Of a stretch of 64,000 nucleotides of DNA, positions 476 to 53,700 are shown one piece after another. The stretch comes from Heptranchias perlo (Eukaryota), in contig NC_090366.1 in the NCBI RefSeq assembly GCF_035084215.1, forward strand, positions 13,578,001-13,642,000, given 5' to 3'. The notes below the pieces were generated by a model. It was not told where the DNA came from. It was given only the letters and a program-made list of their open reading frames with translations, and did no database searches. Every line of letters starts with the position of its first letter. Position 1 is the stretch's first letter. A program made the translations under genes and the position numbers.

Positions 476-3400
476 CTAAGGGCACAAAAAAGAACATATA
501 TGTACGTCGGACCGTCGAACGTAGAGAGTAAGACAGAGGCTAACGCTGTGGGAACCTCACGCAAAAAGTGGCATGGCACCACCCTTGGCAGGAGGGTGTA
601 ATTACAGCGTGACGTTTACATAGCCAGTTTCCATTATAAATGTGGACATGGGCCGTAATGGGAAACTTTGACGCTGAAATCGTGATGACAGGAAGGAAGC
701 GTCGTTGGACAGGAAGTGCATGAGTTTTTAATAAGATACAGATATAGTAAACTACTTACACTCCACACTCAGGTGTACAATGGGAGAGGTACTGCTGCCC
801 AATGGGTTACTGGCTGTGCAGTAGAAATCAGCATCATTCTCCCGTGTTACGTGAGCTAAGTTGATGGACCGAGCACTTGTATTTAACTGGGCTCTCGTGT
901 TGCCATCGATCCTGAACCAGACATAACCAGATGCCGGAGGAACACTTTCACTGGAACAGGTTAGCGTGACATTGTCTCCCTCTCTTATTCCGTGCATGGC
1001 TCGACTGAAGATCACTGCTGTTCCCTTGGGTGGATCTGAAAGAAGATCAGAGTCAACAGGGTCATGACTATTCCCCACGCTCTCCCCTCCGTAAACTTCA
1101 GCTCATCCAAAACTCTGCACCGAGTCCCGTTCACCCATCAGCCCCTGTGCTCGCTCACCGGCATTGGCTCCCAGTCCAGCAACGCATCCAATTAAATATT
1201 CTCATCCTCGTGTTCAAATCCCTCCATGCCCCTTGCACCCTCCCTATCTCAGTAACCTCCTCCAGCCCCGACAACCCTCCGAGATCTCTGCGCTCCTCCA
1301 AGTCTTGCCTCTTGTCCATCTTACACTCCCTTCGACCCACCATTGGCGGCCGTGCCTTCTGTCGTGTAGGCCCGAAGCTCTGGAATTCCCTCCCTCAAAT
1401 TCTCCACCTCTCTCTCCTCCTTTAAGATGCTCAAAACAGAATTTGATACCGAGCCACATAAGGAGATATTAGGACACGTGACGAAAAGCTTGGTCAAAGA
1501 GGTAGGTTTTAAGGAGCGTCTTCAAGGAGGAGAGAGAGGCGGAGAGGTTTAGGGACGGTGGGTGTACGCGTAACACTCTTTGTTATATTAATTTGTTTTT
1601 ATTCAGCGAGATGTGGAAGTATCTCCAGACTCACGTTCCACGGTGATGGTTATGGAACTCTCCACAGCCCCATGTTCATTCTCCGCCACACACCGATACT
1701 CTCCAGCGACCCTGGATGTCACGTGAGGAAGCTCCAATCGCACCTCGTTGTTGGAACTGCTTCTGATCACTGTGACTCCGAGATGTTCCCACCTCAGGTT
1801 AGAAGCTGGGAAGCTTTCGACAGAGCAATGTATGGCTGTAGAATTCCCTTCCGTTATACTGATCGATGAATCTTTAATCGTATCAAGAGAAGTAATTGAG
1901 AGATTCCTCGGAGCGTCTAAAGACAAATAGGGATTTATAGTGAGCAAACACAGCGCACAGCAAGAGCCCATGCATCATCTATCTGTATCTTTTGAAGTGT
2001 TCTCACTGTTGTAATCCAGACAAACGAGGCGGCCAGTTTGCATCGACTGTGAAACACTCTGAGAGATCCTGAGGATGGGGCAGGTGAGATACCAATGCAA
2101 GTTCTTTCTTTCTGTCCTTTAGACTTACTTGCCCTTGATGTATGTGCCCCCCATTTGGGGCAATGTGAGGGAACGATGTGATATTGGGGGCAAAGCCTAC
2201 AACTCTTTGAGCCGGACACTGCTCGTCTAATCCAGAGTCTCGATGGCTTTTCTTGGAGTGTTTCAACACAAAGCCCATGATCCAGGCTGACCCTTCAGTG
2301 CAGTACTGAGGGAGGTCAGGCAACTCATAGGTGTGTGTGAGTGAGTCTTTAATTGTACATGTATGTGTGTGCACGTGTCTCATTGCCTATCTGTGTGTGC
2401 ATGTGTTTGTGTCCATATGTGTGTGTGTATGTGCATGTGTGTGTGGGTGCATGTGTGTGTGCTTGTCTTTGTGGGGGGGTGTGTGTGCATTTGCGTGCTT
2501 GTCTGAGCACGCGTGTGCGTCAGTGTGCGTGTGTGTGTGCATTTGTATGAGAGATGTGGAAGTATCTCTAGACTCACGTTCCACGGTGATGGTTATGGAA
2601 CTCTCCACAGCCCCATGTTCATTCTCCGCCACACACCGATACTCTCCAGCGACCCTGGATGTCACGTGAGGAAGCTCCAATCGCACCTCGTTGTTGGAAC
2701 TGCTTCTGATCACTGTGACTCCGCGATGTTCCCACCTCAGATTGGAAGCTGGGAAGCTTTCGACAGAGCAGTGTAGGGCTGTAGAATTCCCTTCTGTTAC
2801 ACTGATCGATGAATCTTTAATCGTATCAAGAGAAGTAATTGAGAGATTCCTTGGACCATCTAAAGACAAATAGAGATTACATTTTGAGCAAACGCAATGC
2901 ACAGCAAGAGCCCATGCTTCATCTCTCTGTACCTTATGTCTGCATGCATTTCCGGGCATCTTTCCCCATTATGAGTTCCTGCGCCCACATTTGTAATGGA
3001 AACTGCCTATGTAAACGTCACGCTGTAATTACACCCTCCCACCAATGGAGGCGTTGTCCATCTAGAAAGAAAGTGCCTTTCTTGTTGTCAAGATGTCCCA
3101 AAGGGCTTGAAAGCCAATGAATTACTTTTGAAGTGTTGTCACCGTTGTAATCGAGGCAAACATGATCAGCGAGTTTGCATTGACTGTGAAACATTCCAAG
3201 AGATCCTGAGGATGGGACAGGTGAGATACCAATGCAAGTTCTTTCTTTCTGTCCTTCAGACTTACTTGCCCTTGTGGTATGTGCCCCCCGTTTGGGGCAA
3301 TGTGAGGGAACGATGTGATATTGGGGGCAAAGCCTACAACTCTTTGAGCCGGACACTGCTCGTCTAATCCAGGGTCTCGATGGCCTTTTTTGGAGTGTTT

Positions 3401-35558: not shown

Positions 35559-38500
35559 CGGCAGTGTGCATGTGTGCGTGAGAGATGTGGAAGTATCTCC
35601 AGACTCACGTTCCACGGTGATGGTTATGGAACTCTCCACAGCCCCATGTTCATTCTCCGCCACACACCGATACTCTCCAGCGACCCTGGATGTCACGTGA
35701 GGAAGCTCCAATCGCACCTCGTTGTTGGAACTGCTTCTGATCACTGTGACTCCGAGATGTTCCCACCTCAGATTGGAAGCTGGGAAGCTTTCGACAGAGC
35801 AGCGTAGGGCTGTAGAATTCCCTTCTGTTATACTGATCGATGAATCTTTAATCGTATCAAGAGAAGTAATTGAGAGATTCCTCGGAGCATCTAAATACAA
35901 ATAGGGTCTTTATTGTGAAGGAATATACCTGATAGAGAACAGCCACCTGTCGCAACAAACACAGCGCACAGCAAGAGCCCATGCTTCATCTCTCTGTACC
36001 TTATGTCTGCATGCATTTCCGGGCATCTTTCCCCATTATGAGTTCCTGCGCCCACATTTGTAATGGAAACTGCCTATGTAAACGTCACGCTATAATTACA
36101 CCCTCCCAACAGTGGAGGTGCTCTCCCTCTAGAAAGAAAGTGCCTTTCATGTCCTAAGGATGGCCCCAAGAACGTGACAGCCAATGAATTAGTTTTGAAG
36201 TGTTGTCATTGTTGTAACCTAAGCAAACATGGCAGCATTGACTGTGAAGCACTCTGAGAGATAAGCATATGAGTGTGTGCGTGTGTGCACGTGTGTGTGT
36301 GTGATTCTGTGCACGTGTGGGTGTGCACATACATGTGTGTACGTGTCCATTGGCGTGTGTGTGTATGTGTACATGTAACTACTGCTGATTCCTCAGTGAC
36401 ACAGGAAGGCTGTCGTTGCAATAAACTCTGGGTGGTGAGAGGATCCAACTTGTAATGGGATCCAGACCGATCTCGACTTGACCAGTAGCTGCTCTCTCTG
36501 CTCAAAGTGAATAAACCGCCCACCATTGACAGTGTGTATAGAATTACATCGAATGTACAGCACAGAAACAGGCCATTCGGCCCAACTGGTCTATGCCGGT
36601 GTTTATGCTCCACACGAGCCTCCTCCCTCCCGACTTCATCTCACCCTATCACCATATCCTTCTATTCCTTTCTCCCTCATGTGTTTATCCAGCTTCCCCT
36701 TAAATCCATCCACACTATTCACCTCAACTACTCCTTGTGGGAGCGAGTTCCACATTCTCAGCACTCTCTGGGTAAAGAAGTTTCTCCTGAATTCCCTATT
36801 GGATTTATTAGTGACTATCTTATATTTATGGCCCCCTAGTTCTGGTCTCCCCCACAAGTGGAAACATCTTCTCTACGTCTACCCTATCAAACCCCTTCAT
36901 AATCGTAAAGATCTCTACCAGGTCACCCCTCAGCCTTCTCTTATCTAGAGAAAAAAGCCCCAGCCTGTTCAGTCTTTCCTGATAGTTATAACCTCTCAGT
37001 TCAGGTATCATCCTTGTAAATCTTTTTTGTACCTTCTCCAGTGCCTCAATATCCTTTTGCAACATGGAAACCGGAACTGAGCACAGTGCTCCAAGTGTGG
37101 TCTAACCAAGGTATATGGAGACCAGAACTGTGCACAGTGCTCCAAGTGTGGTCTAACCAAGGTACATGGAGACCAGAACTGTGCACAGTGCTCCAAGTGT
37201 GGTCTAACCAAGGTACATGGAGACCAGAACTGTGCACAGTGCTCCAAGTGTGGTCTCACCAAGGTATTTGGAGACCAGAACTGTGCACAGTGCTCCAAGT
37301 GTGGTCTAACCAAGGTACATGGAGACCAGAACTGTGCACAGTGCTCCAAGTGTGGTCTCACCAAGGTATTTGGAGACCAGAACTGTGCACAGTGCTCCAA
37401 GTGTGGTCCAACCAAGGTATTTGGAGAGCAGAACTGTGCACAGTGCTCCAAGTGTGGTCTAACCAAGGTTCTGTGCAAGTTTAACATAACTTCTCTGCTT
37501 TTCAATTCTATCCCTCGAGAAATGAACCCCAGTATTTAGTTGGCATCTTTTTATGGTCTTATTAACCTGCGTTGCTACTTTTAGTGATTTGTGTATCTTT
37601 AACCCCACCCGATCCCTCTGCTCCTCGACTCCATTTAGACTCAACGGGGGTTATATTCGATTCGGCTGGAAACCGGGCACGGGTATCGCGATGTGTGACT
37701 CCCCTGCGCCCAGCGCCTCCTGCGCAGGCAGGACGAGACATGCCTCCGACCTGTGAACTTACCTGACAGCGGCGTCAAAAACCAGGCTGACACGAGGATT
37801 CAAGGACATGCACACTTTCCACCAGCAGGGGGAGCCCCAATCTCTTAAAGGGAGGATGGCCCTTAAAATCTCTTAAAGGGAGCTGGTACCTGTTAGTTGC
37901 TAAAAAATAACAGTCTGCTGTCTGCTCGGAGTCTGAACGGAGATCAGACATCGCACACGTAAAAGACAGATGCAGTTCCTGTCTCTATGTTTACACACTG
38001 ATGAGTTATGTTAAAACATTGAATAAAGGTTGCGCACCACTAAATCCCACATCCTCCAACCTGGATGCCAGACCTCACCAATCTGCTGATCTGAGTTGGT
38101 ACCAGGCTTGTGAGAGTCCATGCACCAAGCTTCTCTGCTGATGCACTGGAGACCTTGGTGCAAGAGGTGAACAGAAGGAGGGACATCCAATATCCGCAGC
38201 GGGGGTGGGGGGCAAGAGGCCCTCCAGACACATGCTCTCGAAGCAGTGGGAGGCAGCGGGGGACAAAGTCAATGCCAGGCGCACAGCATCATGAACATGG
38301 ATGCAGTGCAGGAAGAAGTTCAATGCTTTGACAAGAATGGTCAAGTTGAGTGAGGTCAACTGTCAAGTGGCGTCTCCTACCAACTGCACACTGGCAGCCA
38401 TTCAACCATGACAGGCACATCACCCAGATACACGTCCCCCTTTCTTGCAGGAGAAGGTGGCGCATAGCAGGAGGCAGCTAGTGGCTGTGGCATTTCGCCC

Positions 38501-41500
38501 CTTGAGCCTGTTCCGCTATTCAATGAGATCATGGTGGTCCTGTGACCAAACTCCATATACCCGCCTTAGCCCCATATCCTACATTAATGACTTGGATATG
38601 AATGTAAAAGGTATGATCAGTAAGTTCGCTGATGATACAAAGATTGGTAGGGTGGTAAATAGCGAGGAGGATAGCCTCAGTCTGCAGGACGATATAGATG
38701 GGTTGGTCAGATGGGCGGAACAGTGGCAAATGGAATTTAACCCGGAAAAGTGCGAGGTGATGCACTTTGGAGGGACTAACAAGGCAAGGGAATACACAAT
38801 GAATGGGAGGACCCTAGGCAAGACAGAGGGTCAGAGGGATCTTGGTGTGCAAGTTCACAGATCCCTGAAGGCGGCGGAACAGGTAGATAAGGTGGTAAAG
38901 AAGGCATATGGGATACTTGCCTTTATTAGCCGAGGCATAGAATATAAGAGCAAGGAGGTTATGATGGAGCTGTATAAAACACTGGTTAGGCCACAGCTGG
39001 AGTACTGTGTGCAGTTCTGGTCACCACACTACAGGAAGGATGTGATCGCTTTGGAGAGGGTGCAGAGGAGATTCACTAGGATGTTACCAGGGCTGGAGCG
39101 CTTCAGCTATGAAGAGAGACTGGGAAGATTGGGTTTGTTTTCCTTGGAGCAGAGGAGGCTGAGGGGGGACATGATTGAGGTGTACAAAATTATGAGGGGC
39201 ACAGATAGGATGGATACTGAGGAGCTTTTTCCCTTCGTTGAGGGTTCTATAACAAGGGGACATAGATTCAAGGTAAAAGGCGGGAGGTTTAGAGGGGATT
39301 TGAGAAAGAACTTTTTCACCCAGAGGGTGGTTGGAGTCTGGAACTCACTGCCTGAAAGGGTTGTGGAGGCAGGAACCCTCACAACATTCAAGAAGCATTT
39401 GGATGAGCACTTGAAATGCCATAGCATACAAGGCTACGGACCAAATGCTGGAATATGGGATTAGAGTAGACAGGGCTGATGGCCGGCGCGGACACGATGG
39501 GTCGAAGGGCCTCTCTCCGTGCTGTATAACTCTATGACTCTATGACTCTATGACTATCCCTTAATACCCTAGAAATCTATCAATCTAAGATTTAACATTC
39601 ACAAGTGAGCTAGCATCAACTGTCATTTGCAGAACAGCGTTCCAAACGTCTCCCACCCTTTGCGTGTAGAAGTATTTCCTGACTTCACTCCTGCACGTCC
39701 TGGCTCTAAATGTTAGGCTATGTCCCCCAGTCCTGGTATTCAAGTATAGGAGACCTCATAAAAACAGTTACAAATGCATCAGCCGCCAGAAGCAATAATC
39801 CAGTCACAAATCTGTAAATCCTGCATGGTCCCTTTAAATAGCACTGGTGGGGGGTCCTCCAGGCACTCTCAGACACGTTCAGAGGGTCGGGGTTAAGACT
39901 GTGCGTTGAGTGGAGCGTTAATCCCAAAATGGTGGCTGTCACTTTGAACCAGCGTTGCACACTGATTGAAGCCATTTTCTTCTTACTTTACATGCTGCCA
40001 GCGTTCGTTATCTGCGCCTGCGCTAACTCCTATACCAAGATGGCGTCTGGCAGACGTCACGCTGGAAACATGCGCGCGCAGCCAAGATGCTATTTTGGCC
40101 CAATTTCTAGCCCTTGTTTTCCAAGGAGTGTGTGGCCTCCTTATTCTGCCTTCCAAAATGTACCACTAATTTAAGTATCTGCCAGTATCCCCAAGCCAAT
40201 TCCGTGAAGAAAATCCGACCCGTTACTGTTACTAACAAAGTTATGCCTAAACTCACTTTGTAAAATCCACAGTCACCCGTCGATATTAATTTGTTTGTAT
40301 TTAGCGAGATGTGGAAGTATCTCCGGACTCACGTTCCACGGTGATAGTTATGGAACTCTCCACAGCCCCATGTTCATTCTCCGCCACACACCGATACTCT
40401 CCAGCGACCCTGGATGTCACGTGAGGAAGCTCCAATCGCACCTCGTTGTTGGAACTGCTTCTGATCACTGTGACTCCGAGATGTTCCCACCTCAGATTGG
40501 AAGCTGGGAAGCTTTCGACAGAGCAGTGTAGGGCTGCAGAATTCCCTTCTGTTATACTGATTGATGAATCTTCAATCTTATCAAGAGAAGTAATTGAGAG
40601 ATTCCTTGGAGCATCTAAAGACAAATAGAGTTTGGTCAACTTCCATTGGCTGTGAAACACTCTGAGAGAACCTGAGATCATGAAAGGTGTGATATCAATC
40701 AATGCAAGTTCCTTCATCACAAAGCTCAGAATCTGGGCCGATACTCACAGTGCAGTGGTGAGGGAGTGCTGCACTGTCGGAGGGTCAGTACTGAGGGAGC
40801 GCTGCACTGTTGGAGGGTCAGTCCTGAGGGAGCGCTGCACTGTCGGAGTGTCAGTACTGAGGGAGCGCTGCACTGTCGGAGGGTCAGTACGGAGGGAGCG
40901 CCGCACTGTCGGAGGGTCAGTACTGAGGGAGCGCTGCACTGTCGGAGGGTCAGTACTGAGGGAGCGCTGCACTGTCAGAGGGTCAGTACTGAGGGAGCAC
41001 TTCACTGTCGGAGGGTCAGTACTGAGGGAGCGCTGCACTGTCGGAGGGTCAGTACTGAGGGAGCGCTGCACTGTTGGAGGGTCAGTACTGAGGGAGCGCT
41101 GCACTGTCGGAGGGTCAGTACTGAGGGAGCGCTGCACTGTCGGAGGGTCAGTACTGAGGGAGCGCTGCACTGTTGGAAGGTCAGTACTGAGGGAGCGCTG
41201 CACTGTCGGAGGTGCCCTCTTTCGCATGAGACTTTAAACTCTCTCAGTTGTACGTAGAAGAAGCCTTGACTCTATTCAAAGATGAGTTCTCCCCAGGGTC
41301 CTGGAGCCAATATTTATCCCTCAACCAACATCATTAGAAAAACAGTTTATCCGGTCATCATTACATTTCTGTTTGTGGGATCTTGCTGTGCATAATGTAG
41401 ACATTCACTGGCAATGTAGAATAAAGGATGTTGGTACTTACATTGAACAGTTAGTGCGAGGGTCCGTTGCGATGAAACAGATGGAAAGCTGACTCTACAG

Positions 41501-44141
41501 GTGAGAGTCTGCCCGTAGTGTTTGGGTGATGGGACCAGAGTCAGAACAGAAGAATATGTCAGAGTTCCACCATGCTGAGTTACACTGTTTGAGACAGACC
41601 CGGGAACATCAGTGGGATTGTCCCAGGTTAAGTCAGGTGCTGTTCCCCCGCACGTTGTGTTGAAGGTGCAGGTTATTTTGCAAGATTTACCCTCAATAAT
41701 TTCAGGAGCGAATATTGTTGGTTTATCTGTGAAATCTGGCAGAGAATACATCCTTTTAGTTAAATATCACTTGGAGAATCAGTTCAAATATGAACCACAG
41801 TCCCACAAGGGGGTTTTTTCTCCAGAAAAGAGAAGGCTGAGGGCTGACCTGATAGAGGTCTTCAAAATCTCATAAAATTGACAATTAATGGACACGGTCA
41901 AGACATTGAATCATTGATTATAAAGTGAGTATTAACGGTTGCTTTAAGACTGAACTGGAAGGTATCGCCTGGTTATTGATAATCAGAAGCTGCGTTATTG
42001 TAATGTTTTGTGTTAATAGTTTATATTATTTCCCATTGACTGTTGAAAGTGAATTGATGAGTAATTATAAACAGCACTTACCGGAAACGTGAAGCTGTGT
42101 TGCTGGGAAGTAGCTGAAGCTATTCTTCTTGTCAAATTCTATCCTGAAATAATAAGGACCTGCATCTTCTGCGGTGATGTCGTTTATAATCAGGGAACAG
42201 TCGCCATTTTTCAGGTCTCCAGACAGACCGGTCCGATGTCTGAATCGGTCCGACTCGTGTCCGTGGTCCTTGGAGTGAAAGGCAATAGAATCGCCCGTCT
42301 CTGTATGAAACCACACTCCATCTCGATGTTTGTTTGCCAAATTCGATGGGTAACTGTAATGGCATGGAATCAGCGCACACAAACCTTTCTGTGCTCTCAC
42401 ATCTCGTGGGGTGTCGGCCTTCCACTCTTGTGACAATACAGCTGAGGAGAAAAAATATCGATACCATTTACCTGCTCCATCCCCCTCGATACCGTCACCG
42501 AACAAAAATCTATCGCCCTCAGCCTTGAAAGCTCCAACTGACCCTGAGCATCCACAGCCATTTTTGGGGGGAGAGAGTTCCAGATTCCCACTCCCCTTTG
42601 TGTGAAGAAGTGCTTCCCGACTTCACCCCTGAACGGCCTGGCTCTAATTTTAAGGTTCTGCCCCCTTTTTCTGGACTCCCCCCACCAGAGGAAATAGTTT
42701 CTCTCCATCGACCCCATCAAAACCAATGGCATTTGAAACACCTTGATTAGATCATCTCGCAGTCTTCTATACTCAAGAGAATACAAGCCATGTCCCCTGA
42801 CGATCGAATCCCCCAATAACAATTCCATTTCTGCCCCCCTGTGCAGCCGAGTCTCCCACGGTGCCGTGGATTTGCTCCTGGTTGCATTGCCCCGAGGTGT
42901 CATCTCCCTCATTGTTATTCAACACTGAATACTGGTTTGTGAGTGTCACGCTCCCAGGGGACTCCTGCACTGCCTGCCTGTTCCTCTTCGTCTATCTGGT
43001 GCTCACCCGCTCCCTCTCCGCCTGAACTCTCTGCAGCAGCGGGGTGACCACCTCCTGAAACGTGCTATCCAAGAAACACTTCCCATGTTCGCTGTACTGA
43101 CACCAGCCGCCCCTCAAGCTCAGAAACTCTGAGCTTGAGCTCGAGCAGTTGGCGGCACTTCCTGCACATGTGGTTTTCCAGGACGCACAAAGTTTACGCA
43201 ACCTCTCCTCGTAATTTAACCCTCTAAGTCCCGGTATCATTCTGGTGAATCTGCACTGCACCCCCTCCAGGGCCAATATACCCTTCCTGAGGTGCGTTGC
43301 CCAGAACTGAACGCAGTGTCTCCAGCTGGGCTCAGGAGTAGGAACCCGGGTTAATTTTCTATTCCCCAACCCAAGGCCAAATCCTGGTGCCTTTCCCCCT
43401 GGGAATCAAACATTGCCGATTCCTCAGGAGAGATGGAGACTGTTTCTATCAGAGATGAACCCAAAGAATCCTGGGCCTGAATAATGGGAGGAGCCCGTTC
43501 TGATCGCAGGCCAGTGAAACAATGTCAGCAAATTGTATTTATATAGCGCCTTTAAAACAACGTCCCGAGGCTCCTCACAGGAGCGATTATCAGACACAAT
43601 CTGACACCGAGCCACATAAGGAGATATTAGGACAGGTGACCAAAAGCTTGGTCAAAGAGGGAGGTTTTAAGGAGCGTCTTAAAGGAGGAGAGAGAGGCGG
43701 AGAGGTTTAGGGAGGGAATTCCAGAGCTCAGGGCCCAGGCAGCTGAAGGCACGGCCGCCAATGGTGGAGCGATGGAAATCGGGGGATGGACAAGAGGCCA
43801 GAATTGGAGGAGTGCAGAGATCTCGGAGGGTTGCAGGGCTGGAGGAGGTTACAGAGATGGGGGGGGAGTGAGGAGGCCATGGAGGGATTTGAACACGAGG
43901 ATGAGAATTTTAAAATCGAGGTGTTCCCGGACCTGGAGCCGATGTCGGTCAGCGAGCACAGGGGGTGATGGGTGAACGGGACTCGGTGCGAGTTAGTACA
44001 CTGAGTCACTGCTGAATTTGGTCCCTCGTCATAACTCAATAACAATGATCGTTTGCACCGACTATTATCCATAAATATCTCCGACCTGACGATGATATTA
44101 CCTTGGAGAAGTGACAGGAGGAAGTAAGGTTTCCTGATCAT
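22292..44141 (-). CDS. Siglec-like gene B, complete: 18 coding exons, 1503 aa, 14 Ig domains (1 V + 13 C2), TM, ITIM + ITIM-like tail
   Basis: Exon lengths 40+360+294+10x282+276+294+97+82+249 = 4512 nt, in frame with compatible phases and GT-AG junctions. Confidence 0.9.
22740..23000 (-). mobile_element. tRNA-headed Deu-domain SINE
   Basis: A-box (TGGCCCAGTGG) and B-box (GGTTCGAGCC) like head followed by Deu body. Confidence 0.7.
23108..23189 (-). CDS. Gene B first cytoplasmic exon
   Basis: ttttgcAG / GAG-GTAACG; [27 protein letters not shown]; phase 2 to 0. Confidence 0.82.
23330..24090. mobile_element. Two CR1 3' fragments in opposite orientation
   Basis: [14 protein letters not shown] on minus; [12 protein letters not shown]...[15 protein letters not shown] on plus. 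Confidence 0.8.
24126..24222 (-). CDS. Gene B transmembrane exon
   Basis: [32 protein letters not shown]: uncharged hydrophobic run then basic stop-transfer; ttacAG / GTACGT. Confidence 0.85.
25248..25687 (-). mobile_element. CR1 3' fragment inserted in an L2 fragment, with AGGTTTAG target-site duplication
   Basis: Same subfamily as 11095-13596; TSD at 25240-25247 and 25688-25695. Confidence 0.88.
25762..26055 (-). CDS. Gene B exon, membrane-proximal Ig domain 14
   Basis: Paralogue of 182-475 (one aa difference). Confidence 0.88.
26340..26615 (-). CDS. Gene B exon, C2-set Ig domain 13
   Basis: Paralogue of 760-1035. Confidence 0.9.
27237..27518 (-). CDS. Gene B repeat Ig exon 10
   Basis: 282 nt open frame, canonical splice sites. 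Confidence 0.85.
28199..28480 (-). CDS. Gene B repeat Ig exon 9
   Basis: 282 nt open frame, canonical splice sites. Confidence 0.85.
29094..29375 (-). CDS. Gene B repeat Ig exon 8
   Basis: 282 nt open frame, canonical splice sites. Confidence 0.85.
30059..30340 (-). CDS. Gene B repeat Ig exon 7
   Basis: 282 nt open frame, canonical splice sites. Confidence 0.85.
31228..31509 (-). CDS. Gene B repeat Ig exon 6
   Basis: 282 nt open frame, GTAAGT donor. Confidence 0.85.
32397..32678 (-). CDS. Gene B repeat Ig exon 5
   Basis: 282 nt open frame, canonical splice sites. Confidence 0.85.
33566..33847 (-). CDS. Gene B repeat Ig exon 4
   Basis: 282 nt open frame, canonical splice sites. Confidence 0.85.
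34718..34999 (-). CDS. Gene B repeat Ig exon 3
   Basis: 282 nt open frame, canonical splice sites. Confidence 0.85.
35609..35890 (-). CDS. Gene B repeat Ig exon 2
   Basis: 282 nt open frame, atttAG / GTGAGT. Confidence 0.85.
36540..37640 (-). mobile_element. CR1 LINE 3' fragment with internal 51-bp tandem repeat x8 (~37063-37469)
   Basis: [24 protein letters not shown]; repeated [16 protein letters not shown]. Confidence 0.88.
37644..40221 (+). mobile_element. Degenerate Harbinger/PIF-like non-autonomous element with Myb/SANT-like remnant; CR1 nested inside
   Basis: [26 protein letters not shown]...QCRKKFNAL (frameshifted); homologous to 62140-63946; GGG-starting imperfect termini. Confidence 0.6.
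38580..39554 (+). mobile_element. 5'-truncated CR1 LINE (RT C-terminal half, intact frame)
   Basis: YINDLD...KFADDTK...[15 protein letters not shown]; (ACTCTATG)n tail; TATCC on both flanks. Confidence 0.92.
40333..40614 (-). CDS. Gene B repeat Ig exon 1 (most diverged copy)
   Basis: 282 nt; DKIEDSS..GNSAAL variant. Confidence 0.85.
40740..41400 (+). mobile_element. Deu-domain SINE with 33-bp VNTR (~40757-41212), paralogous to 14490-15150
   Basis: Same unit and flanks as the gene A copy. Confidence 0.75.
41442..41735 (-). CDS. Gene B exon, Siglec domain 2
   Basis: One aa different from gene A domain 2; 294 nt. Confidence 0.9.
42082..42441 (-). CDS. Gene B exon, Siglec V-set domain
   Basis: [13 protein letters not shown] and YYFRIE with essential Arg; 360 nt. 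Confidence 0.93.
42470..43330 (-). mobile_element. CR1-derived fragments (3' RT end interrupted by an ORF1/esterase-like piece)
   Basis: [30 protein letters not shown]; LTNQYSVL and IVIG-DSIVRG GDSL-like remnants. Confidence 0.7.
44102..44141 (-). CDS. Gene B signal-peptide exon (coding part; exon begins at 44183)
   Basis: [13 protein letters not shown] plus phase-1 GTAATA donor. Confidence 0.8.
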
Positions 44142-44483
44142 TGTCCACTCTCAGATATTTCATCAACTTCTCACTCTCAAGGTCTGAAAGAGAAACAAGT
44201 AAATGAGAACTCACCTCTTGCCCGACAGCTCTGCAGATATTAAAACTGCTTCTAGACAATGTCTTCACGGACTAATTTGATTCTATGTGGGATGATGGGT
44301 TGTCTGCAGTGAGTTACAAGGCTTTAAGAAAGAGAAAAAAAGACAGAACTTGCATTTCTACAGTGCCAGGAGAACTCCCCCTGCTCTTCATCCAATAGTG
44401 GCCGTGGGATCTTTTACGTCCGCCTGAGAGGGACAGACGGAGGCCTCGGTTTAACCTCTCATCTGAAAGACGGCATCTCCAAT

Positions 44484-45521
44484 AGTGCAGCGCTCCCTCA
44501 GTAATGACCCTCCGACAGTGCAGCGCTCCCTCAGTACTGACCCTCCGACAGTGCGGCGCTCCCTCAGTACTGACCCTCCGACAGTGCAGCGCTCCCTCAG
44601 TACTGACCCTCTGACAGTGCATCACTCTCTCAGCACTGACCCTCCGACAGTGCAGCGCTCCCTCAGTACTGACCCTCCGACAGTGCAGCGCTCCCTCAGT
44701 ACTGACCCTCCGACAGTGCAGCACTCTCTCAGTACAGACCCTCTGACAGTGCATCACTCTCTCAGTACTGACCCTCCGACAGTGCAGCGCTCCCTCAGTA
44801 CTGACCCTCCGACAGTGCAGCGCTCCCTCAGTACTGACCCTCCGACAGTGCATCACTCTCTCAGTACTGACCCTCCGACAGTGCAGCGCTCCCTCAGTAC
44901 TGACCCTCCGACAGTGCAGCGCTCCCTCTGTACTGACCCTCCGACAGTGCGGCGTTCCCTCAGTACTGACCCTCTGACAGTGCAGCGCTCCCTCAGTACT
45001 GACACTCCGACACTCCCTCTGCCCTGACCCTCTGACAGTGCAGCACTCCCTCAGTACTGACACTCCGACAGTGAGGCACTCCCTCTGCCCTGACACTCCG
45101 ACAGTTCAGCGCTCCATCTGTACTGACCCTCCGACAGTGCAGCGCTCCCTCAGTACTGACCCTCTGACAGTGCAGCGCTCCCTCAGTACTGACACTCCGA
45201 CAGTGAGGCACTCCCTCTGCCCTGACACTCCGACAGTGCAGCGCTCCATCTGTACTGACCCTCTGACAGTGCAGCGCTCCCTCAGTACTGACCCTCTGAC
45301 AGTGCAGCGCTCCCTCAGTACTGACACTCCGACAGTGAGGCACTCCCTCTGCCCTGACACTCCGACAGTGCAGCGCTCCCTCAGTACTGACCCTCCGACA
45401 GTGCAGCGCTCCCTCAGTACTGACCCTCCGACAGTGCAGCGCTCCCTCAGTACTGACCCTCCGACAGTGCAGCGCTCCCTCAGTACTGACCCTCCGACAG
45501 TGCGGCACTCCCTCAGTACTG
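44484..45521 (-). repeat. 33-bp SINE-derived VNTR (~31 units)
   Basis: CAGTACTGACCCTCCGACAGTGCAGCGCTCCCT tandem, within a minus-strand SINE. Confidence 0.9.
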
Positions 45522-46023: not shown

Positions 46024-47015
46024 TCAGCCGTGACCCAGTGGTAACACTCTCGCCCCCGAGTCAGAAGGTCATGGGTTCAAGTCCCCACTCCAGAGAGCCA
46101 CATAATCCAGGCCGACACTCTCCCAGTGCCAGTACTGAGGGAGTGCTGCACTGTCAGAGGGTCAGGACTGAGGGAGCGCTGCACTGTGGGAGGGTCAGTA
46201 CTGAGGGAGTGCTGCACTGTCGGAGGGTCAGTACTGAGGGAGCGCTGCACTGTCGGACAGTTAGTACAGAGGGAGCGCTGCACTGTCAGAGGGTGAGTAC
46301 TGAGGGAGCGTTGCACTGTCGGAGGGTCAGTACTGAGGGAGTGCTGCACTGTCAGAGTGTCAGTACTGAGGGAGCGCTGCACTGTCGGAGGGTCAGTACT
46401 GAGGGAGAGCTGCACTGTCGGAGGGTCAGTACTGAGGGAGTGCTGCACTCTTGGACGGTCAGTACTGAGGGAGCGCTGCACTGTCGGAGGGTCAGTACTG
46501 AGGGAGTGCTGCACTCTCGGACGGTCAGTACTGAGGGAGCGCTGCACTGTGGGAGGGTCAGTACTGAGGGAGTGCTGCACTGTCGGAGGGTCAGTACTGA
46601 GGGAGCGCTGCACTGTCGGAGGGTCAGTACTGAGGAAGTGCTGTACTGTCAGTGGTTCAGTACTGAGGGAGCGCTGCACTGTCGGAGGGTCAGTACTGAG
46701 GGAACGCTGCACTGTCGGAGGTTCAGTACTGAGGGAGCACTGCACTGTCAGAGGGTCAGTACTGAGGCTGCACTGTCAGAGGGTCAGTACTGAGGGAGCG
46801 CCGCACTGTCGGAGGGTCAGTAGTGAGGGAGTGCTGCACTGTCGGAGGGTCAGTACTGAGGGAGCGCTGCACTGTCGGAGGGTCAGTACTGAGGGAGTGC
46901 TGCACTGTCGGAGGTGCTGTCTTTTGGATGAGACGTTAAACCGAGCAATCAATTGTTTGTAAAACGCTTTGGGACGTCCTGAGGTAGTGAGAGACACTTT
47001 GTAAATGCAATATCT
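46024..47015 (+). mobile_element. tRNA-headed Deu-domain SINE with 33-bp VNTR (~46130-46913, ~24 units)
   Basis: A/B-box-like head (GGTTCAAGTCC), VNTR, SINE tail. Confidence 0.8.
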
Positions 47016-50603: not shown

Positions 50604-50720
50604 TTATATATTTGCATAAATAGAGTCCTCGTCAAGATTGCAGTTTTCGTAGATATTATCGGCTTGAAATACATTCCTGTAACGGTCAGTTTCGATTCCC
50701 AGCGTCTCTTCCTCATCCTT
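50604..50720 (-). CDS. Gene C terminal cytoplasmic-type exon (YRNV, IYENC, SIYANI-stop)
   Basis: Polypyrimidine tract + ttacAG; phase-0 frame KDEEETLGIETDRYRNVFQADNIYENCNLDEDSIYANI. Confidence 0.72.
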   Translation of the reverse strand, partial: KDEEETLGIETDRYRNVFQADNIYENCNLDEDSIYANI

Positions 50721-53700
50721 CTGTAATAGAAAAGGAAATGAGCAGTGTGACAATCGGCACAATCTGTGATTGGCTTGTTTGAGTCCAATGAGATCATTGG
50801 ATCTGCAATTGAGGCCCAACCGTGCAGGGTTTGATCATTGATATTGATCAATGTTGGGTTTGATCATTGATATTGATCAATGATGGGTTTGATCATTGAT
50901 ATTGATCAATGATGGGTTTGATCATTGATATTGATCAATGATGGGTTTGATCATTGATATTGATCAATGATGGGTTTGATCATTGATATTGATCAATGAT
51001 GGGTTTGATCATTGATATTGATCAATGATGGGTTTGATCATTGATATTGATCAATGATGGGTTTGATCATTGATATTGATCAATGATGGGTTTGATCATT
51101 GATATTGATCAATGATGGGTTTGATCATTGATATTGATCAATGATGGGTTTGATTATTGATATTGATCAATGACGGGTTTGATTATTGATATTGATCAAT
51201 GATGGGTTTGATTATTGATATTAAACAATGTTGGGTTTGATCATTGATATTGATCAATGTTGGGTTTGATCATTGATATTGATCAATGTTGGGTTTGATT
51301 ATGGATATTGATCAATGTTGGGTTTGATTATTGATATTGATCAATGATGGGTTTGATTATTGATATTGATCAATGTTGGGTTTGATTATGGATATTGATC
51401 AATGTTGGGTTTGATTATTGATATTGATCAATGTTGGGTTTGATTATTGATATTGAACAATGTTGGGTTTGATTATTGATATTGATCAATGATGGGTTTG
51501 ATTATTGATATTGAACAATGTTGGGTTTGATCATTGATATTGATCGATGTTGGGTTTGATTATTGATATTGATCAATGTTGGGTTTGATTATTGATATTG
51601 AACAATGTTGGGTTTGATTATTGATATTGAACAATGTTGGGTTTGATTATTGATATTGATCAATTTTGGGTTTGATTATTGATATTGATCAATGATGGGG
51701 TTGATTATTAATATTGAACAATGTTGGGTTTGATTATTGATATTGATCAATGTTGGGTTTGATTATTGATATTGATCAATGTTGGGTTTGATTATTGATA
51801 TTGAACAACGTTGCGTTTAATTATTGATATTGAACAATGTTGGGTTTGATTATTGATATTGATCAATGTTGGGTTTGATTATCGATATTGAACAATGTTG
51901 GGTTTGATCATTGATATTGATCAATGTTGGGTTTGATTATTGATATTGATCAATGTTGGGTTTGATCATTGATATCGATCAATGTTGGGTTTGATTATTG
52001 ATATTGATCAATGATGGGGTTGATCATTGAAATTGATCAATGTTGGGTTTGATCATTGATGTTGATCAATGATGGATTCGATTATTGATATTGAACAATG
52101 TTGGGTTTGATTATTGATATTGAACAATGTTGGGTTTGATTATTGATATTGAACAATGTTGGGTTTGATTATTGATATTGATTAACGATCGGTTTGATTA
52201 TTGATATTGATCAATGATGGGTTTGATTATTGATATTGATCAATGTTGGGTTTGATTATTGATATTGAATAACATTGGGTTTGATTATTGATATTGATCA
52301 ATGATGTATTTGATTATTGATACCAAACAGTTTGTCTTTCGTGGATACTCACCTTGCCCACTGACAGATTGTATTTTTAACTGCCTCTGGATGTGGCCTG
52401 ATGAATTCTCCACCGAGCAGTTGATCATCTGCTCAATGAGGCTGCTTCCAGTGATGGTGAGTATGTTGGCGACCAAGCGGCCATCCCTGATGGACTGTGT
52501 CTCGTAGGTCCCTCCCCCTGGTCCAATCACTTCATTGCTCCTCCCTTGCAGATGCCACATGACCTCAGCTGATGAATCCGATTGCACCACACAAACACAT
52601 GTCGTATTGGTCAGATACAGTTTGCAATTTGACTCCGGTAGTATGATGTCATCATCTGTAAAATATGTTTGAAACAGCCCCATTAAATTATCCAGTTTCA
52701 GGAGACAGGTACAAAAAGTAGTCACCAAGCCTAATGGGACGTTGGCCTTTATCTCAAGGGAGGCTGGGATACAAATTGGAGGAAATGATGCTTCAGTTGT
52801 GCAGAGCCTTGGTCAGACCTCATCTGAAGCTTTGTGTTCAGTTCTGGGCCCCGCACCTCGGGAAGGACATATTGGCCTTGGAGGGGGGGCAGCGCAGATT
52901 CACCAGAATGATACCGGGGCTTAAATGGTTAAAATGTGAGGAGAGATTACATGGACTGGGCTTGTATTTCCTGGAATATGGAAGGTTGAGGGTGATTTGT
53001 TAGAGTTCTTTTTGGATTTTGAAAGGAATTGATCGGGTAGATAGAGAGAAATTTTTTCTGCCGGTGGGGGGAGTCCAAAACAAGGCGGGGGCATAACCTT
53101 AAAATTGGAGCTCGGCCGTTCAGGAGTGAAAGCAGGAAGCACTTCTTCACTCAAATGGGATTGGAAAGAGGCTGAAGAAAAGGTCCCAGCTGGAGTGAGT
53201 TGGGAAACGGTGCATTCCCACATAATGATTGATGGAAGTGACAGGCAGAGGGTGTGAGCCCAACAGAATTTATTGGAACACCGTTCTGTACCAATTATCA
53301 AACCCAACACCATCACTGGAAGAGTTGAGAGGGAGTTTCACTCTGGCGATATTTTAATGCTAATTATCCTAAATCGCACCAAGTCCCATTCACCCATCAC
53401 CCCCTGTGCTCACTGACCTCCATTGGCTCCCAGTCCGGCAATGCCTTGATTTTAAAATTCTCATCCTGGTGTTCAAATCCCTCCATGGCCTCCTCGCCCC
53501 CATTCCCTATCTCTGTAACCTCCTCCAGCCCTCAACCCTCCGAGATCTCTGCGCTCCTCCAATTCTGGCCTCCTGTCCACCCCCACTCCCTTCGCTCCAC
53601 CATTGGCAGCCATGCATTCAGCTGTTTGGACCCTAAACTCTGCAATTCCCTCCCTAAACCTTTCCGCCTCTCTCTCGATGTCTAATCTTGCCTGATAATG

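Follow-up and report, generated by a model that had tools for sequence, protein, structure and literature searches.

In a 64,000-nucleotide stretch of the Heptranchias perlo genome (NC_090366.1, positions 13,578,001 to 13,642,000; hereafter the window), two neighboring genes on the minus strand, A and B, each carry ten near-identical exons for one immunoglobulin (Ig) domain. Judged by their sequence, the two are tandem shark Siglec paralogues. Both follow one exon plan of signal peptide, V-set domain, C2 domain, ten repeats (R), two more Ig domains (Y and Z), transmembrane (TM) exon and two cytoplasmic exons, giving an ectodomain of 14 Ig domains. In gene A, the coding part of the signal-peptide exon (18853–18894) was located by tblastn with the leader of NCBI protein P0001. 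The V-set exon (15833–16201) holds the Siglec arginine (DAGPYFFR); MAG, Siglec-8 and CD33 all align with a sister V domain. The first C2 exon (15193–15486), whose junction with the repeat is seen in RNA-like contigs, is followed by the array of ten 282-bp C2 exons (1635–14365), the penultimate C2 exon Y (760–1035, spliced joint 1035–1635) and the membrane-proximal Ig exon Z, which is similar to MAG domain 5 (182–475, spliced joint 475–760). The TM and tail exons of gene A lie to the left of the window (L035). Gene B comprises the coding part of the signal-peptide exon (44100–44141), a V-set exon in which the arginine is kept (42082–42441, DAGPYYFR; a V type unlike that of A and common to a gene C of the same cluster), the first C2 exon (41442–41735), the array of ten 282-bp C2 exons (27237–40614), Y (26340–26615), Z (25762–26055), a TM exon with a hydrophobic stretch that lacks charged residues (24126–24222), a first cytoplasmic exon (23108–23189) and a last exon (22292–22540) encoding the ITIM (immunoreceptor tyrosine-based inhibitory motif) LLYANI and the ITIM-like motif TEYAHI.

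Siglecs carry an extra cysteine in the V and the first C2 domain, which form an inter-domain disulfide. These extra cysteines are present here (GLCALIPC and NTTCG), and the sister protein P0045 aligns to the matching MAG cysteine. The V-set arginine is found in both genes, the sister V domain aligning at the MAG and Siglec-8 Arg motif, and the type I layout of C2-set domains, single TM helix and cytoplasmic tail is complete. When a one-repeat sister protein was compared with solved structures, the best match was MAG (E 3e-39), followed by Siglec-8 (4e-34) and, further down, CD33 (6e-27), whilst exon Z matched MAG domain 5 (E 2.5e-11). As in inhibitory Siglecs, the tails carry LLYANI with TEYAQI or TEYAHI next to an uncharged TM segment, although LLYANI ends in Ile and is matched only by the looser ITIM pattern. 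Definitions of Siglec features were taken from PMC13358205 and PMC7226832, the latter giving the inhibitory pattern as an ITIM, [I/V/L/S]xYxx[L/V], or an ITIM-like motif. P0001, labelled Heptranchias perlo, matched the repeat at 100%, and the NCBI annotation also gives gene B ten repeats, inside a fused model; automated names for these genes include 'heparan sulfate proteoglycan core protein-like'. There are 23 (A) and 21 (B) N-glycosylation sequons in the repeats.

A preliminary description of the window had placed the array exons at 14365, 10982, 9844, 8677, 7539, 6372, 5198, 4032, 2859 and 1916 (starts, gene A) and at 40614, 35890, 34999, 33847, 32678, 31509, 30340, 29375, 28480 and 27518 (gene B). 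We recovered all 20 at these starts on the minus strand, each 282 bp long with AG/GT ends, an open frame and both cysteines. The starts are spaced by 3383, 1138, 1167, 1138, 1167, 1174, 1166, 1173 and 943 bp in A, and by 4724, 891, 1152, 1169, 1169, 1169, 965, 895 and 962 bp in B, and repeat units within the stalks are 93.5–100% identical. As each exon is phase-symmetric, gain or loss of a unit is always in frame. The first inter-repeat intron holds an insertion in both genes, of ~2.5 kb in A (about 11098–13596) and at about 36530–40170 in B, both matching interspersed repeats. Minisatellites of 33 bp lie in the C-to-R introns of A and B (14510–14961 and 40759–41212) and upstream of gene B (44477–45521 and 46130–46914).

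Inter-repeat introns were of four types, F (about 610 bp), alpha and beta (856–892 bp) and L (661–683 bp), common to both arrays and in the same order. Gene A reads F (with the insertion), alpha, beta, alpha, beta, alpha, beta, beta′, L, and gene B reads chimeric X, F, alpha, beta, beta, beta, L, F, L. Comparison of 608 non-microsatellite sites in the 11 long introns bore out the dimer and monomer runs that had been described. The ~2.3 kb dimer of gene A is real, its alpha and beta introns alternating three times with same-type copies differing at 0–1 of 608 sites; the 1169-bp monomer run of gene B is three units differing at 1–3 of 608 sites; and the short intron type at 27519 and 29376 of gene B is indeed duplicated. 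The preliminary description had overlooked that B has one alpha intron, that the beta introns of B are of A's beta type and that the first-type and last-type introns are common to both genes.

Alpha and beta introns differ from each other at 13–21 of 608 sites, A-alpha from B-alpha at 6–7 and A-beta from B-beta at 9–13. Since the gap between alpha and beta exceeds that between A and B for the same type, which in turn exceeds the gaps within runs, alpha and beta predate the separation of A and B or its last homogenisation. The final runs, with differences of only 0–1 (A) and 1–3 (B), are therefore younger than that separation or homogenisation. Cross-gene divergence within a type falls in the range of the A/B flanks (17/1536, 11/936, 4/565 and 16/599), and the 3′ introns of A and B diverge by about 1–3%. 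A tree of the long introns grouped them by type, not by gene (97–100 bootstrap), and reciprocal monophyly of A and B for these 11 introns was rejected (approximately unbiased (AU) test, p = 0.001), and with it a fully independent origin of the arrays. Among the exons, A2 and B3 have private alleles in common and are distinguished by 2 of 282 sites; alleles are also shared by A10, B8 and B10. Strict one-to-one positional orthology of units was rejected as well: at the 5′ end the match is shifted by one (A2 with B3), the middle runs are gene-specific, and only the 3′ end is in register. Exon B1 is chimeric, its upstream intron being A-like and its downstream intron matching at its start (93–95%) the intron between repeat and TM exon in the short paralogues C, D and E. 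The proposal that the two genes came to ten exons by different routes thus holds for the last duplication steps, and fails for the skeleton beneath them, which is shared by ancestry or conversion. On this sequence comparison, about five exons were likely inherited and about five added separately and recently in each gene.

Four sequencing runs (X5–X8) were guessed to be RNA, none being recorded as such, and were treated as RNA-like because exons are joined in them at GT/AG and introns are almost uncovered. Contigs of all four cover the repeat exon and leave the repeat introns almost uncovered. The C-to-R junction was found in 4/4 runs, R-to-R junctions in 4/4 (X7 and X8 show joints, X5 and X6 loose ends), and the R-to-Y and Y-to-Z joints in both of the two runs examined there. 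Because contigs cannot rank the parts of a gene, the number of repeats per transcript was not read from the depth of RNA contigs. An assembly artefact, in which the arrays or their equal size would stem from mis-joined reads, gains something from the near identity of several units (0–3/608), from the lack of any examined contig spanning an array and from a repeat-exon depth of up to about 1.4 times the per-copy level, by which the true count may be somewhat higher. Against it, the units have distinct, ordered patterns of single-nucleotide differences, there is no N in the window, and, once contig depth is divided by the number of assembled 31-mer copies, repeat paths come out close to low-copy paths in X1 (49–69 versus 42–66) and X3 (24–28 versus 20–29), two of the four listed DNA runs; contig depth is a rough check that gives no copy number. 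Depth, which the preliminary description had named as a way to expose mis-assembly, thus roughly fits the assembled copy number with no gross over-expansion, and we consider an artefact very improbable.

Searching the genome for the exon gave 24 copies. Besides the 20 of the arrays there are four, also overlooked by the preliminary description, that lie 16–90 kb past the window, one in each of four one-repeat genes. One of these, paralogue F (149174–162440 in window coordinates, past the window end), has the plan V-C-repeat×1-Y-Z-TM-ITIM, which is the plan and tail of A; it is 96.8% identical to A over 4.5 kb and lies within an inverted duplicate arm (about 97%). We also collected 70 proteins, 69 from sharks or rays and one insect hit without the repeat, a set in which isoforms and some fused models are included. 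Repeat counts among the shark and ray proteins ran from 1 to 10 and were unequal within most species, the longest gene per species having 10, 10, 8, 8, 7, 6, 5, 5 and 2 repeats. On a tree of the Y and Z domains, sister genes of whale shark and zebra shark had 6 versus 8 and 4 versus 2 repeats (support 88 each), whilst two other orthologue pairs were equal or nearly so (2 versus 2; 3 versus 3 or 2). Expansion of the third domain to five or more copies was seen in four shark orders, and the repeat domains clustered broadly by shark lineage (FastTree, proteins P0001–P0050, midpoint root). In the bamboo shark Chiloscyllium punctatum, proteins P0002, P0072 and P0076 have the plan V-C-R10-Y with ten repeats; other members of the 90% cluster of this gene are a Hemiscyllium protein with six repeats and a predicted isoform with seven.

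These counts bear on the idea, raised in the preliminary description, of a molecular ruler. Under a length ruler or ceiling, the long Siglec would be kept by selection at about 14 Ig domains, perhaps so as to fit the height of the glycocalyx or the gap between two cells, and A, B and the bamboo-shark gene would have converged on ten repeats. Consistent with this, A and B each added about five units through different events, the C. punctatum ten-repeat protein uses repeats that group with those of other carpet sharks, no protein among 78 exceeds ten, and the exons are under purifying selection (see below). Against it, paralogue F has the same tail and one repeat, the longest gene differs between species, orthologue pairs are unequal, and the newest units are only 0–3/608 apart, so the present counts are young. 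Equal counts also arose in 8–13% of runs of a toy walk from five or six units, a crude model with parameters of our own choosing. With close paralogues at 1 versus 10 repeats and orthologue pairs at 6 versus 8 and 4 versus 2, a ruler fixed at ten is not supported and is unlikely; even the looser form, with a ceiling, we regard as improbable. The equal count in A and B is likely a coincidence, and taken alone the ten-and-ten match carries little weight. The 'accordion' part of the earlier idea fared better, as the last duplications in A and B differ and are very recent, and shark genes range from 1 to 10 in their number of repeats.

The 20 exons contain 34 distinct substitutions, 15 synonymous and 19 nonsynonymous, giving a dN/dS of 0.41–0.51, or about 0.45 (p 0.009–0.042, varying with the assumed transition bias). 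There is mild purifying selection on the sequence of the units, and this is silent on their number. Intactness of all copies, which had been offered as a sign of selection, was rejected as proof: the neutral chance that 34 substitutions include no stop, cysteine or splice-base change is 0.11–0.17 (indels uncounted), so that intactness alone is within chance. This fits neutral drift, in which the array would expand through mispairing of near-identical, CA-rich units, and fitness would not depend on the length of the stalk so long as each domain folds. There is a CA-rich tract in every inter-repeat intron, recent duplications, both tandem and inverted, abound in the cluster (95–98% identity), and the one-repeat paralogues are intact. 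Drift accounts poorly for the third domain being again the expanded one, at five or more copies and grouping by lineage, in four shark orders, and the repeat-to-repeat junctions are transcribed in all four RNA-like runs. We think drift alone an unlikely explanation.

The reading we favor, at a probability of about 0.68, is that A and B are tandem Siglecs with ten-copy arrays of the third Ig domain, which likely grew in roughly equal parts before and after A and B parted, that their equal count is likely coincidental, and that the long stalk would hold a predicted inhibitory sialic-acid sensor clear of the sugar coat of its own cell. The ten near-identical exons in each gene would likely stem from one unstable inherited repeat array in which duplication continues, probably by unequal crossing-over. 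Its ancestral skeleton may have been exon-F-exon-alpha-exon-beta-exon-L-exon, of five exons, or six if beta′ of A is old. Gene A would then have gained two alpha-beta dimers and one beta unit. In gene B the gains would be two units of beta, a block F-exon-L-exon and, from a short-type gene, its first exon. Selection would keep the units foldable, and probably favors a long stalk, not one of ten.

Several points weigh against this reading. Three genes (A, B and that of C. punctatum) have exactly ten repeats, and more than ten were found in 0/78 shark or ray proteins with a search window that admitted up to about 15. A geometric fit, a crude model of our own on 16 hand-picked genes with four or more repeats, gave P(none above ten) = 0.24, which is not significant, yet compatible with a ceiling. 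Low counts elsewhere may reflect collapsed assemblies or partial gene models, and the shared intron types could stem from conversion between A and B once each array had grown independently. As no contig spans an array, the transcript with all ten exons is a predicted one, and all runs come from one animal (sample S1), possibly the assembled one.

The surrounding region is a cluster of related genes organised by a large inverted duplication (95–98%), in which 42489–64000, continuing to window-equivalent 71500, pairs with 111900–142700. The arm that mirrors gene B retains nothing of it but a last exon, now an orphan (window-equivalent 143541–143786). The short paralogues C, D and E (V-C-R-TM; window-equivalent 76397–108885, L002–L005) have a different tail (IYENC, SIYANV), and NCBI model P0016 appears to fuse C with the repeat exon of D. 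The V exons of B and A (42082–42441 versus 15833–16201) are set apart by 33 changes in 360 bases and by a gap of 3 codons, most of the changes altering the protein (18 residues), whereas the next intron and the C exon show only 5/351 and 2/289 differences. The V type of B is common to gene C and that of A to D, E and F. This contrast suggests V-domain swapping or diversifying selection. A Siglec-like gene at 50607–64335 (minus strand) has V, C, a two-domain unit present in duplicate and an exon resembling Z, with Tyr replacing the V arginine (DVYYFYLTL); tail queries found no TM exon for it, an inverted copy lies at window-equivalent 119471–136063 (L006–L008), and a 29-bp AT-rich array occupies 50827–52322. 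More Siglec-like V exons occur on the same contig (G000:C45), at window-equivalent 166333–171143 (L011) and near 3.4–3.65, 10.2–10.5, 13.15, 13.87 and 13.93–13.96 Mb; these exons are candidates for MAG, CD22 or Siglec-1 orthologues. About 3 kb past the stop of gene A lies exon 1 of a PP2A 65-kDa scaffold subunit, alpha or beta isoform (L035:3690–3770, minus strand). PPP2R1A adjoins the human CD33-related Siglec cluster, a placement for which a literature search gave no confirming paper; by this neighbor, the exon beside gene A hints at ancient synteny with the CD33-related locus.

Long, variable C2 stalks are known in Siglecs. A and B resemble sialoadhesin (Siglec-1, CD169) in that a V-set domain with the Arg tops a very long stalk of C2-set domains. 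Siglec-1 has 17 Ig domains and is reported to reach past the glycocalyx and avoid cis ligands (PMC13070564; PMC13358205). A and B differ in having 14 Ig domains, ten of them near-identical and variable in number among relatives, and in a tail with ITIM and ITIM-like motifs, Siglec-1 being described as lacking a signaling domain (PMC13358205). MAG (Siglec-4) is the best solved-structure match for the V-C-repeat part and the membrane-proximal domain, the one-repeat paralogue F has its five-domain plan, and fish MAG is stated to have ITIMs (PMC7226832). The likeness to MAG is one of structure match; unlike MAG, which is classed among the conserved Siglecs, the shark cluster is multi-gene with fast turnover and an expanded third domain. 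CD33-related Siglecs (Siglec-8, -10, -5 and CD33) are the next-best structure matches (E 4e-34 to 1e-21). Features they have in common with the shark genes are a tail with ITIM and TEYAQI, paralogues that are clustered and species-specific, a V exon that has diverged far more than the sequence on either side of it, and exchange of segments from one paralogue to another; here six close paralogues lie within 170 kb and repeats group by lineage. We know of no CD33-related Siglec with a homogenised ten-unit stalk. A literature search gave no title on shark Siglec stalk repeats, subscription papers being largely outside its coverage; nor did it bring up any Siglec that bears an ITIM, has a homogenised stalk of variable copy number and recurs across shark orders, as is seen here in four of them.

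If these likenesses hold for function, the V domain would bind sialic acid and the tail would recruit SHP phosphatases (SHP-1/2), by analogy with inhibitory Siglecs (PMC13358205). Ten glycosylated spacers would raise the head toward sialoadhesin height, past the cell's own sugar coat; escape from cis masking and a rod-like extension are proposed here. On that view the cluster would supply receptors of two lengths, short in C, D, E and F and long in A and B, and of two V types. A bolder version, which we hold unlikely, is that sharks repeatedly build a sialoadhesin-length inhibitory Siglec through a one-exon accordion, that selection caps or tunes it near 14 Ig domains, the size attained by two genes of the sevengill shark and one of the bamboo shark, that the PP2A-adjacent cluster is an ancient counterpart of the mammalian CD33-related locus and that it offers a natural length series of 1 to 10 units, on which the effect of receptor height on cis versus trans sialic-acid sensing could be tried.

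The teleost fish genomes studied are reported to be without inhibitory CD33-related Siglecs (PMC7226832), against which an expanded ITIM-bearing Siglec cluster is seen here in a cartilaginous fish. The length of a Siglec stalk is thought to decide whether the receptor reads the sugars of its own cell or those of another. With 1 or 10 spacers on near-identical receptors of a single genome, 1 to 10 across sharks and the inhibitory tail kept, these genes would amount to a ready-made length series on which to test this idea.

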